Sequence record: OQ718158.1
Origin: Escherichia phage vB_Ec-M-J
DNA length: 64,000 nt
Direction: 5' to 3' (one strand)
The translations under genes and the position numbers were made by a program. This document shows positions 23,079 through 24,005 of the stretch, one piece after another. The notes below the pieces were generated by a model that was given only the letters and a program-made list of their open reading frames with translations, did no database searches and was not told where the DNA came from. Within the stretch, counting starts at the first letter, position 1; each line of letters starts with the position of its first letter.

Positions 23079-24005
23079 TTGAAAAAAGCGAAAAAAGCAC
23101 TGAAAACTAAAATTGCCGTAGGCGTATTAGTTTCATCAGCCCTATTCGCTGCGATTGGATTTTATGGTTTTTCTCAAAGTGATCGTGCATCATCATTAGA
23201 CGAAAGTCAGGTGCATAATTTAAAACCACAAGTTACGCAAATTCAAAAGCAGGAACTACCACAGGTATCAGTACCAAAAGCAGTTCCAAGCAGCGAGAAA
23301 CATTATACGGTTCAACCTGGAGATAGTTATTATTCTATTGCACAGAAATTTAAACCTAAAAATGTACAGATTGAAGATTATGTCATTTTGTTGAAGAACA
23401 TCAACTTAAATGCAACTCTTCATACTTCTCAGGGTATCTTTATCCCAACAAAAGAGGATTTGAAGAACGTATTGTTACCAGATGTGACTGTACTGTTTGA
23501 TTATAAAGATCCAGAAATTGTCAATCACATCAAAGAAGCTGAAGGTTCTATTGAATTTCAGTCCAAGAACAAACGACGTTTACTTGGTGGGAAAGTTGGA
23601 GTTCCTTTCCACAATTCTAAATTTCATCCCTATAAGGACATGAAAGGTAATTATACAATTGGTTATGGGCATTATTTGGGTAAGAAAGATTCTGATGCAA
23701 TGAAGTACAGAAACGGGATTACCAAAGCACAGGCCAACAAACTTTTAATGCAAGATATGAAAAGGACTTACGAGGACTTTACACTATTGATGCAGAAGAA
23801 AGATGCAGTTAATCTGACAAAAGAACAGCAGCGTATCCTGTTTGAAATGTCATACACAATGGGCGTTGATAAGTTGGCAACATTTAACAAACTATGGAAA
23901 AGTGTTAAAATGGATAACCCTAAGAAATTCAAGAAAGAAATCATGAATTCCTTGTGGTATCGCCAAGTTACAAACAGAGCGGATTTGTTGTTAAGCTCAC
24001 TCTAA
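23079..24005 (+). CDS. T4-lysozyme-like (GH24) protein with N-terminal membrane anchor and LysM-like motif
   Basis: Start set at TTG 23079 after RBS aaaggagg (track start 23052); TM segment; YTVQPGDSYYSIAQKF; YKDMKGNYTIGYGH matches the T4 lysozyme core. Confidence 0.6.
   Translation: MKKAKKALKTKIAVGVLVSSALFAAIGFYGFSQSDRASSLDESQVHNLKPQVTQIQKQELPQVSVPKAVPSSEKHYTVQPGDSYYSIAQKFKPKNVQIEDYVILLKNINLNATLHTSQGIFIPTKEDLKNVLLPDVTVLFDYKDPEIVNHIKEAEGSIEFQSKNKRRLLGGKVGVPFHNSKFHPYKDMKGNYTIGYGHYLGKKDSDAMKYRNGITKAQANKLLMQDMKRTYEDFTLLMQKKDAVNLTKEQQRILFEMSYTMGVDKLATFNKLWKSVKMDNPKKFKKEIMNSLWYRQVTNRADLLLSSL

Follow-up and report, generated by a model that had tools for sequence, protein, structure and literature searches.

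The window analysed here, a 64,000-nucleotide stretch of DNA, comes from an Asteriusvirus (Rak2-like) jumbo coliphage. At 23079-24005 on the plus strand it encodes a membrane-anchored LysM-GH24 lysozyme of 308 amino acids, recognised by Pfam, PHROG and ortholog matches. The mechanical open reading frame covers 23052-24005 (+), and the start supported by a ribosome-binding site lies inside it. As the first-pass annotation had proposed, this is a non-ATG start behind a strong ribosome-binding site: the sequence reads as a Shine-Dalgarno element AAAGGAGG and TTG codon (together 23067-23081, plus strand; TTG at 23079-23081), with GGAGG at 23070-23074 and TTG beginning 4 nt later. The annotations of fEgEco12 and phAPEC6 use the same start, both as 927-nt CDSs, and the start codon is TTG or GTG in all lineages examined except the RaK2 group, where it is ATG.

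PHROG 15410 matches the protein over its full length (2e-163). By sequence comparison the protein is the ortholog of 121Q gp532, CBB_187, RaK2 gp506 and phAPEC6 gp293; full-length identity to the orthologs 121Q gp532, vB_PcaM_CBB CBB_187, GAP32 gp180, RaK2 gp506 and phAPEC6 gp293 is 47-91%, rising to 99.7% for the BF17, fEgEco12 and EC.P1 copies. The full-length protein is encoded in 70 GenBank phage records, and among the records listed (60 of the 70) all are jumbo-phage genomes of about 310-386 kb save one record of 86 kb. The gene is thus already known, being annotated, present in GenBank in near-identical copies and previously discussed as a predicted endolysin: in 2017, 121Q gp532, CBB_187 and RaK2 gp506 were described as a transmembrane segment plus LysM-like and lysozyme parts and predicted to be signal-arrest-type endolysins (PMC5259590). 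Induction of CBB_187 inhibits growth, reported originally as 'data not shown' (PMC5259590).

Gene neighbourhood

The lysozyme gene belongs to a cluster concerned with nucleotides, RNA and translation (thymidine kinase, RNA ligase, CCA-adding enzyme, NUDIX, HPF), not to a lysis cassette. The ribosome hibernation factor gene (HPF/RaiA, S30AE family; 24021-24353, plus strand; Pfam PF02482, 3e-10) begins 16 nt past the lysozyme stop, and the two are probably co-transcribed. An HPF gene comes after the lysozyme gene in most lineages examined: directly in phAPEC6, XbC2, Kaldavass, XaC1 and Turkey5, and one gene further off in Salmonella phage Munch. Right after the HPF stop, at 24362-24389, is an 11-bp GC-rich hairpin followed by TTTTCTT (plus-strand sequence AAAGGGACAGAGATTATTCTGTCCCTTTTCTT; the scan assigns it to the minus strand). 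It is likely to be the terminator at the end of the lysozyme-HPF unit.

The first-pass annotation had called the lysis genes dispersed, with spanins at 13930-14615, and this holds. The i-spanin (13930-14304, plus strand) is an Rz-like protein with an N-terminal transmembrane segment that matches PHROG 1152 (1.2e-27). The o-spanin candidate (14301-14615, plus strand), a lipoprotein with the lipobox LISGC, overlaps the i-spanin stop by 4 nt and has a weak Rz1-like LysC match (E 0.0045). Spanins of 121Q and PBECO4 have been listed (PMC6139136). We found no holin-like gene adjoining the lysozyme gene in the window. Small single-TM open reading frames lie at 22140-22286 and 24861-25046, and in the 43%-identity lineage L003 a 79-aa two-TM open reading frame lies directly upstream of the ortholog. 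No other GH24 copy was found in the window; Rak2-like genomes also encode a soluble GH24 paralog of 162 aa, LysUE1, for which muralytic activity has been demonstrated (PMC12805682). The UE-S1 'lysozyme' paper was set aside as a source on the 308-aa protein because it concerns this paralog instead.

Domain architecture

The protein begins with a Lys-rich N-terminus, MKKAKKALKTK, followed by a single hydrophobic helix, IAVGVLVSSALFAAIGFYGF (residues 12-31; 23112-23171, plus strand), that could be a signal anchor or SAR-like. The hydrophobic stretch is 19-20 residues long, with a Kyte-Doolittle value of 1.99, a summed Hessa scale of +1.15 kcal/mol and 47% G/A/S/T, and is kept across the family alignment. 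A Q/P/S-rich linker of variable length follows (residues 32-73; 23172-23297, plus strand); it is predicted to be disordered, as AlphaFold2 pLDDT is below 50 for residues 1-72 and the family alignment has indels there.

The LysM domain (residues 74-123; 23298-23447, plus strand) is supported by Pfam, the AlphaFold2 model and BFVD. PF01476 matches residues 76-92 at 22.3 bits against a cut-off of 20.9, aligning profile positions 1-17 only, and is precomputed on two family members. The predicted fold is beta-alpha-alpha-beta, with strands at 75-77 and 119-121 and helices at 84-91 and 98-108 (pLDDT 84-89), and BFVD gave a LysM fragment match (rmsd 1.5 over 52 columns, E 7.5e-3). By eye, GDSYYSIAQKF ... 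NINLNATLHTSQGIFIP fits the LysM pattern GDTL..IA ... N.L....l.vGq.l.iP.

The GH24 T4-type lysozyme domain occupies residues 145-308 (23511-24002, plus strand), as placed by Pfam, Foldseek and profile alignments. PF00959 (Phage_lysozyme) matches residues 182-288 (E 2.3e-11, 44.5 bits against a cut-off of 22.3) and is precomputed on all 66 of 66 homologs. In the AlphaFold2 model residues 73-308 have pLDDT 84-96, and a helix at 145-156 leads into extra strands. Among PDB structures the model matches T4 lysozymes best, aligned over 173-176 columns; against T4 lysozyme (T4L) Foldseek gave a probability of 1.0, a TM-score on the target of 0.68 and an rmsd of 3.5 over 173 columns. The 173-176 columns correspond to 141 matched positions plus 23 and 12 gap columns, which, judging from the counts, fits inclusion of the N-terminal helix. 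The T4-lysozyme core at the C-terminus, and the transmembrane and LysM-like parts ahead of it, had both been read correctly in the first-pass annotation.

The catalytic triad and a family-specific insertion

That annotation had also noted a His nine residues before the Asp, where the catalytic Glu would be expected, and had taken the Glu to be not evident and the protein to be possibly inactive or non-canonical. The His is indeed there: H178 (codon CAC, 23610-23612) is D187 minus nine. The catalytic Glu is elsewhere. Alignment to T4L revealed a conserved Glu-Asp-Thr triad, the result that the annotation itself had named as refuting its reading, with E155, D187 and T193 on T4L E11, D20 and T26. 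E155-G156 (23541-23546, plus strand), the catalytic Glu and next Gly, corresponds to T4L E11-G12; D187 (23637-23639) and T193 (23655-23657) fall within YKDMKGNYTIGYGH (23637-23657, plus strand). The Glu lies 32 residues before the Asp, not nine, because a conserved 23-residue insertion (residues 158-180; 23550-23618, plus strand), specific to this family, separates the Glu helix from the Asp strand in the family and T4L alignments and in the AlphaFold2 model. Q161, R166, L168 and G171 are invariant in the insertion, whose predicted effect is to give the small lobe additional beta strands.

A catalytically dead, peptidoglycan-binding pseudo-lysozyme without a general acid would fit the His at the ungapped position, and the Pfam, phmmer and local hhalign alignments all end at or just before the Asp strand and reach no Glu. 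These local alignments (phmmer against the PDB) never cross the insertion, however, and so are unable to decide the question. It was decided by global hhalign, by unsupervised MAFFT with intermediate subfamilies and by family conservation. In the global profile alignment PEIVNHIKEAEGS falls on T4L MNIFEMLRIDEGL, with a single clean gap of 23 residues. MAFFT, run with canonical, +13 and +23 lysozymes, places E/G/Y/D/G/T on T4L E11/G12/Y18/D20/G23/T26. The +13 intermediates are 149-aa soluble phage lysozymes whose shorter, 13-residue version of the insertion (EGTxEYQ...GKFYPYKD) retains the EG motif. Across 61 homologs, down to 46% identity, E155-G156, D187, T193 and YGH196-198 are invariant, with E155-G156 in a canonical "hIKxxEG" helix, whereas the H178 column varies (H/R/Y/Q/S/N/K). 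The CBB ortholog is, moreover, toxic when induced (PMC5259590). We therefore regard a dead enzyme as extremely improbable. On family conservation, the profile and unsupervised alignments and the AlphaFold model, the triad E155/D187/T193 is present; E155 was hidden by the insertion, and the protein is in this respect ordinary. GH24 lysozymes can thus carry 13- or 23-residue insertions between Glu and Asp, and counting nine back, or relying on local profile matches, then misses the Glu and can wrongly suggest a pseudo-enzyme.

Promoter-like site and conserved leader

The 167-nt intergenic gap upstream of the lysozyme gene holds a sigma-70-type promoter-like site (22935-22962, plus strand), TTGATA-16 nt-TATACT with a TG extended -10, which has 10/12 matches. 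Overall, this AT-rich region shows no excess of sigma-70-like sites (22 found, 17.8 expected from shuffles), so the promoter call rests on position and conservation. The arrangement is kept in 121Q and Turkey5; RaK2 has TTGACA-17-TAAAAT, and L003 a perfect TTGACA-17-TATAAT. We infer that 22935-22962 may act as a promoter. We saw no internal late promoter, and the window nowhere contains TATAAATA.

Between this site and the gene lies a conserved structured leader core (22994-23028, plus strand), recognised by conservation and a covariance model and consisting of GUAGAAAGUCC, an A-rich joint and hairpin Pb. Pb is formed by GAGGCUUU, a UGCAA loop and AUGGCCUC; in an alternative pairing, Pa, GUAGAAAGUC pairs with GGCUUUUGC. 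The Pa/Pb alternative-hairpin module lies 40-80 nt upstream of the Shine-Dalgarno sequence. The leader motif is unique in the window and is kept upstream of orthologs with only 47-55% protein identity. Covariance model R1 has a single match in the window (47 bits, E 9e-12) and matches once in each of 16 other loci, always upstream of the ortholog; Rfam 15 returned no relevant match over 22700-23300 at E up to 10. Choosing the arms as the best stems biases the P1 hairpin statistics.

Several other identities for the leader were considered. A terminator was rejected, since most lineages lack a U-tract after Pb. A minus-strand coding sequence (an 81-aa open reading frame, 22855-23100) is contradicted by 1-nt and 2-nt indels between close relatives, and a DNA operator is unlikely given the many G·U pairs retained. 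The idea of a general promoter motif or regulon fails on the single copy per genome and on the other IMG/VR pattern matches, which have no common flanks. Occlusion of the Shine-Dalgarno sequence by the leader was not significant overall: shuffled leaders already pair it with probability 0.44-0.77, and the CBB/GAP32-type and Hallingskeid-type leaders are the only exceptions.

Discussion

It seems probable that the protein is a catalytically competent modular muramidase, inserted by Sec in the inner membrane, and the predicted holin-independent endolysin of Rak2-like phages. Domain anatomy, triad, family-wide conservation and synteny come from our analysis, and absence from virions and toxicity on induction from the literature. 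The Lys-rich N-terminus would stay in the cytoplasm while the weakly hydrophobic helix 12-31 crosses the membrane, placing a disordered linker of about 40 residues, LysM 74-123 and GH24 145-308 in the periplasm. The host Sec system would export the protein with no need of a holin, so that a membrane-tethered form builds up, and LysM may dock the enzyme onto glycan strands. The sacculus would be degraded at the end of infection, probably upon depolarisation or release by a holin or pinholin, and the spanins (13930-14615) would next disrupt the outer membrane.

The first-pass annotation had suggested a signal-anchor or SAR-type endolysin, the reading also published, as a prediction, for the orthologs (PMC5259590). 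The disordered linker and LysM separate the end of the helix, at residue 31, from the start of the catalytic domain at about 145. A canonical SAR helix lies right next to the catalytic domain and controls it, and once released it refolds into the enzyme. With some 110 residues in between here, that mechanism cannot hold unchanged, and a flexible 40-residue tether might not restrain the enzyme at all. The helix's +1.15 on the summed Hessa scale compares with +0.46 for P1 Lyz and +0.78 for R21 (both approximate), on a crude scale that separates other transmembrane helices poorly and does not reliably discriminate SAR from stable helices. Values across the family run from -3 to +3.5; hydrophobicity thus varies so widely that SAR-like character is not a family constant.

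The same enzyme might instead carry a cleavable Sec signal peptide and work as a soluble periplasmic LysM-lysozyme, held in check by membrane energisation as is Lys44 of Oenococcus fOg44. Many orthologs have AAA then IGF after a 10-residue hydrophobic core, where the 308-aa protein has SSA then L, and both sites fit the -3/-1 rule. The hydrophobic stretch runs past these candidate sites, however, a better fit to a transmembrane helix, and we consider cleavage distinctly unlikely. A virion-associated lysin that helps breach the cell wall at entry, as T4 gp5 and internal virion lysozymes do, would agree with the best PDB sequence match, an internal virion protein, and with some GenBank records that name the protein a tail lysozyme. 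Such matches are confined to the GH24 domain (phrog_13211 and phrog_430 cover the GH24 part only), the protein has no OB-fold, beta-helix or other structural module, it does have an N-terminal signal anchor, and its gene is far from the structural modules. In phAPEC6, mass spectrometry did not detect gp293 among 62 virion proteins, whereas the 95.9-kDa baseplate lysozyme gp241 was detected (PMC7247149). We give a virion role very little credence.

A different question is whether an active, exported muramidase need be the terminal endolysin. The 162-aa GH24 paralog and some holin could lyse the cell, leaving the 308-aa protein to wall remodelling in the long jumbo-phage cycle, to back-up or timing, or to co-regulation with HPF. 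The context of early-type metabolic genes, the gene's own sigma-70-like promoter-like site and the conserved pairing with HPF all point this way. So do the muralytic activity of the paralog LysUE1 in vitro (PMC12805682) and the fact that CBB_239, its CBB homolog, is not among the confirmed structural proteins (PMC5259590). Yet the paralog gene is flanked by baseplate genes and carries a tail-lysozyme annotation, while the TM-LysM-GH24 protein was found full-length in 70 GenBank records of the phage group. Growth inhibition by the induced CBB ortholog is the behaviour of a self-exporting endolysin, and dispersed lysis genes are normal in large myoviruses, the spanins here being isolated too. 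An accessory role seems to us rather unlikely, as a reading of the whole, though either of the two proteins may be the main endolysin. PA5oct lacks an ortholog of the 308-aa protein in its omics paper, so the PA5oct omics give no timing data, and we found no transcriptome of a Rak2-like phage in the literature.

For the tethered endolysin, we tentatively suggest a further possibility, which we would not yet favour: that lysozyme and HPF form a two-gene unit, expressed from a host-type promoter and gated post-transcriptionally by a previously undescribed, gene-specific leader RNA, with an endolysin that is tethered without being SAR and an insertion that takes part in its control. The invariant strand (GUAGAAAGUCC) and the covarying 3' arm would compete for the GRCUUUG strand to form Pa or Pb, Pb being capped in such a switch by the conserved UGCAAA loop. 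Aided by the weak TTG/GTG start, which is also conserved, the leader would silence a self-exporting and potentially suicidal endolysin until a signal, possibly a protein, temperature, ribosome status or the stage of infection, flips the switch. The 23-residue insertion adjoins the active site and might also contribute to endolysin control. The conserved leader RNA and the lysozyme-HPF pairing offer leads on how an endolysin is controlled, and the family a possible model for keeping a self-exported enzyme, tethered by linker and LysM, harmless until lysis. This is relevant to the biology of lysis timing and to the engineering of lysins against Gram-negative bacteria.

Comparison with known systems

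The orthologs in Rak2-like jumbo phages have the same TM, LysM and GH24 architecture and the same RNA/nucleotide-metabolism gene block, usually with HPF next, and nothing substantive differs. Neither the 23-residue insertion between Glu and Asp nor the conserved leader figures in what has been published on them.

T4 lysozyme, the GH24 product of gene e, shares the fold and triad (E11/D20/T26) and the C-terminal-lobe motifs F..MG and S.WY.Q.P/xNR. The 308-aa protein differs in having the 23-residue insertion, in lacking the T4L 35-50 loop segment and in carrying 144 extra N-terminal residues (TM, linker and LysM), and T4L itself stays in the cytoplasm until the holin acts. The regulation may also be comparable. 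McPheeters et al. in 1986 reportedly described translational masking of T4 gene e early transcripts; both lysozyme genes can be reached from host-type promoters and have a structured 5' leader near the ribosome-binding site. Unlike gene e, the gene studied here has no visible internal late promoter, and occlusion of its Shine-Dalgarno sequence lacks statistical support.

SAR endolysins (P1 Lyz, phage 21 R21, phiKMV gp45) and the 308-aa protein both appear to combine a GH24-type enzyme with a weakly hydrophobic Gly/Ala/Ser-rich helix after a basic N-terminus, and in both groups holin-independent export is predicted and expression is toxic (PMC5259590). The 308-aa protein differs in the linker and LysM (about 110 residues) between helix and enzyme, and no pinholin was found adjoining its gene. 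An N-terminal cell-wall-binding module is unusual for phages of Gram-negative hosts (PMC5259590). The 308-aa protein resembles the jumbo-phage endolysins phiKZ KZ144 and EL188 in that an N-terminal module for binding peptidoglycan precedes the catalytic domain. Its binding module is LysM rather than PG_binding_1, its catalytic domain GH24 rather than a lytic transglycosylase, and, unlike KZ144, it has a membrane anchor.

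Results

The lysozyme gene lies in a mechanical ORF spanning 23052-24005, and its 308-residue product is predicted, by alignment and structural modelling, to have a complete Glu-Asp-Thr catalytic triad. The first-pass annotation had found a His nine residues before the Asp, where the catalytic Glu was expected, and suggested that the protein might be inactive. The His is indeed there, H178 lying exactly nine residues ahead of D187, but across family alignments of 28 and 61 sequences its column is variable (H/R/Y/Q/S/N/K), while E155-G156, D187, T193 and Y196-G197-H198 are invariant. 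E155 sits within HIKEAEGS, the motif with which the first helix of GH24 enzymes usually ends. A global profile-to-sequence alignment to T4 lysozyme places PEIVNHIKEAEGS over MNIFEMLRIDEGL and then, after a single clean 23-residue gap, KFHPYKDMKGNYTIGYGH over RLKIYKDTEGYYTIGIGH, equating E155 with E11, D187 with D20 and T193 with T26. Local alignment mode reaches H178 ungapped, at zero confidence. The triad is conserved as E155/D187/T193, and the claim that the Glu is missing is refuted.

Soluble 149-aa lysozymes on ~30-kb phage contigs in IMG/VR have a 13-residue insertion between Glu and Asp, with the pattern LKxYEGTxEYQxKxxYxxxGKFYPYKDSxGxxTIGYGH. This GH24 subfamily (EGTxEYQ...GKFYPYKD) was found at IMG/VR loci L026-L038 (the ~30-kb contigs), L024 and L031, and also includes forms with a TM segment and linker and no LysM. 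Some distant IMG/VR relatives keep the canonical 9-residue Glu-Asp spacing. Unsupervised MAFFT alignment of the IMG/VR relatives, T4 lysozyme and three family members left the E/G/Y/D/G/T columns invariant, with nested insertions of 0, 13 and 23 residues. An AlphaFold model built from the 61-sequence alignment (pLDDT 84-96 over residues 73-308) runs from a helix at 145-156 through extra short strands at 166-178 to a T4 lysozyme-type sheet. In the PDB the model is best matched by T4 lysozymes (probability 1.0; TM-score on target 0.68), over 173-176 alignment columns; 141 + 23 + 12 would be expected with the N-terminal helix included. Sequence searching found no solved structure carrying the Glu-Asp insertion, which is a new detail and a caveat for annotators.

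The start and architecture proposed in the first-pass annotation were borne out. A TTG codon (23079-23081, + strand) stands 4 nt behind a GGAGG ribosome-binding site (23070-23074), and it is also where the annotated 927-nt CDS begins in the records of both fEgEco12 and phAPEC6. In every lineage examined the start is TTG or GTG, the RaK2 group with its ATG being the one exception; such conservation of a weak start agrees with selection to keep translation of a toxic product low or regulated. The N-terminus, MKKAKKALKTK, precedes a 20-residue hydrophobic stretch (12-31) and a Q/P/S-rich linker (32-73) that varies in length in the family alignment and is predicted to be disordered. Pfam LysM (residues 76-92; 22.3 bits, cut-off 20.9) and Phage_lysozyme (182-288; E 2.3e-11, 44.5 bits, cut-off 22.3) both match above cut-off. 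Residues 74-123 form a complete LysM: the AF2 model gives a beta-alpha-alpha-beta unit, which a BFVD LysM fragment fits at rmsd 1.5. In PHROGs the full-length match is to phrog_15410, of unknown function (2e-163); the endolysin and tail-lysozyme families match a single domain only.

Over the 8 kb surrounding the gene, identity to Escherichia phages EC.P1, fEgEco12, BF17 and WPEC3 is 97-99%; these are Rak2-like jumbo myoviruses of 350-385 kb, and fEgEco12 was placed in Asteriusvirus by its own paper. Entries of these four phages, named "lysozyme", "endolysin" or "hypothetical protein", share 99.7% identity with the protein; 121Q gp532 shares 91%. Exactly 70 GenBank phage records contain a full-length homolog, and the records listed all belong to the Rak2-like group, from Escherichia, Klebsiella (RaK2, K64-1), Salmonella, Erwinia, Serratia (BF), Yersinia (fHe-Yen9-04), Pectobacterium (CBB), Cronobacter (GAP32) and Xanthomonas. 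A protein database search gave 66 homolog clusters, with identity down to 43%. One homolog, 73% identical, appears under the name 'hypothetical protein [Escherichia coli O157]'; the 352-kb contig that carries it is probably a jumbo-phage genome placed inside a bacterial assembly.

A predicted endolysin role for this product in Rak2-like jumbo phages has been published before. In CBB_187 and its homologs GAP32 gp180, 121Q gp532 and RaK2 gp506, Buttimer et al. 2017 (PMC5259590) reported an N-terminal TM segment, a wall-binding domain weakly resembling LysM and a lysozyme at the C-terminus; they predicted the protein to be the endolysin and stated, as data not shown, that its induction inhibits E. 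coli growth. LysUE1 of phage UE-S1, characterised recently, is not this protein but the 162-aa GH24 paralog beside the baseplate genes; it is muralytic in vitro (PMC12805682). Only the Glu-Asp insertion and a leader RNA are new beyond the published endolysin description.

The leader (~22969-23078) has a core at 22994-23028, in which an invariant GUAGAAAGUCC (22994-23004, single copy in the window) precedes a hairpin, Pb, whose loop is UGCAAA. GUAGAAAGUCC is kept in the 100-140 nt upstream of orthologs sharing only 47-55% protein identity, and the Pb stem shows compensatory substitutions (GAGGC/GCCUC, GCGAC/GUCGC, GUGGC/GCCAC). In a hand-anchored alignment of 22 distinct leaders, Pb and a further hairpin, P1, together pair in 93.8% of cells; shuffles give 71.6% (0/500) and sliding gives 36-47%. 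The combined figure is biased for P1 because its arms were picked as best stems; Pb alone is paired in 89%. Column pair 57/81 is AU in 11 leaders, CG in nine and UA in one, and pair 59/79 is GC in 12 and AU in four. In a model-fitted alignment Pb is paired in 83% of cells versus 76% in shuffles (0/500). An alternative pairing, Pa, joins the invariant 5' strand to the Pb 5' arm plus loop. It pairs in 99.5% of cells, yet its near-invariance puts it beyond the reach of a covariation test. Pa and Pb are mutually exclusive, as both use the GRCUUUG strand, and their energies lie within 1-4 kcal/mol in every lineage. Frequent G·U pairs point to plus-strand RNA rather than a DNA site.

Searched with a covariance model of the core, the 64-kb window yields a single match (E 9e-12). 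At each of 16 further loci the model likewise matches once, ahead of the ortholog, but it has no match in L003 (the 43%-identity ortholog lineage) or XaC1; these lineages are the most divergent two, and their upstream regions are different. With a strict pattern, IMG/VR gave one copy of the motif per jumbo contig, in every case at the lysozyme locus; other pattern matches share no flanks. No Rfam match to the leader was found. Shine-Dalgarno sequestration appears in some MFE folds but overall is not significant against shuffles. A sigma-70-like site lies ahead of the leader, here as TTGATA-16-TGcTATACT (22935-22962); 121Q/Turkey5 and RaK2 also have such a site. In L003 the ORF next upstream of the ortholog (L003 3618-3857) is 79 aa long, two-TM and holin-like; a terminator hairpin and a TTGACA-17-TATAAT promoter of perfect consensus come after it, with no structured leader.

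The gene sits in a conserved block with thymidine kinase, RNA ligase, CCA-adding enzyme, NUDIX, glutaredoxin and the ribosome hibernation factor HPF, a context that calls for caution about its timing, and a 100-170 nt intergenic gap lies ahead of it. The upstream neighbour (22501-22911) weakly resembles the 2H phosphoesterase 'Swiss Army Knife' domain (PF22547, E 6e-5, below cut-off) and has an H-x-T-type motif (HITIGR) at its end. HPF/RaiA (S30AE, Pfam 3e-10; 24021-24353) starts 16 nt downstream, adjoins the lysozyme gene in most lineages examined and is followed by a strong terminator-like hairpin with a T-run (24362-24389), suggesting a bicistronic unit. Conservation, two to three independent compensatory changes and the specificity of the model suggest that this unit may be under post-transcriptional control.

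Two near-consensus sigma-70 promoter-like sites (TTGACT-17/16-TATAAT, 11/12 matches) just ahead of downstream genes, at 24333-24361 and 25377-25404, suggest that host RNA polymerase reads the block. The T4-type late-promoter octamer TATAAATA occurs 0 times on both strands of the 64-kb window, where shuffles expect 7.5 +/- 2.8; either the motif is counter-selected or the region is without such late promoters. The lysis genes are, as first noted, dispersed: a pair of i-spanin and candidate o-spanin at 13930-14615 (Rz-like phrog_1152 match, 1e-27; lipobox ORF, 4-nt overlap) is directly followed by an HNH homing-endonuclease-like gene (14618-15229; PHROG 23285, 7e-112; Pfam HNH). Spanins of 121Q and PBECO4 are catalogued in PMC6139136. 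Small membrane ORFs lie nearby: a tail-anchored one of 46-48 aa two to three genes upstream (22140-22286; also at the Salmonella phage Munch locus) and, in the window, a 61-aa N-terminal-TM ORF ~0.9 kb downstream (24861-25046).

Discussion

A basic N-terminus with a single hydrophobic helix gives an N-in/C-out topology under the positive-inside rule, and this is the topology predicted for the lysozyme-gene product. It is probably an active muramidase that Sec would export and an inner-membrane tether would hold, with its LysM and GH24 domains facing the periplasm, and that would serve as a holin-independent endolysin alongside the distant spanins. The main rival, that the soluble 162-aa GH24 paralog is the real endolysin and the membrane-anchored LysM-lysozyme an accessory, seems to us unlikely.

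A pseudo-enzyme lacking the catalytic Glu, the reading that H178 had invited, is very improbable beside the invariant E155. We give just as little credence to a virion-associated lysin: the phAPEC6 ortholog is gp293, and mass spectrometry of phAPEC6 virions detected one of two predicted lysozymes, the 95.9-kDa baseplate gp241 only (PMC7247149). The N-terminus may be a stable anchor or a cleavable signal peptide.

The suggestion that the tethered muramidase is a SAR (signal-arrest-release) endolysin stands in part. CBB_187 has been likened to the SAR endolysins P1 Lyz and phiKMV gp45 (PMC5259590), but the lysozyme-gene product is not a canonical member of that type, because ~110 residues lie between its helix and the catalytic domain. 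The 40-residue tether is flexible and might in principle extend as far as the sacculus. Helix 12-31 is marginal on a crude summed hydrophobicity scale (+1.15; 47% G/A/S/T), and its SAR character is only possible, since family helices range widely on this scale, which discriminates poorly. On it, the helix falls near the SAR helices of P1 Lyz and R21.
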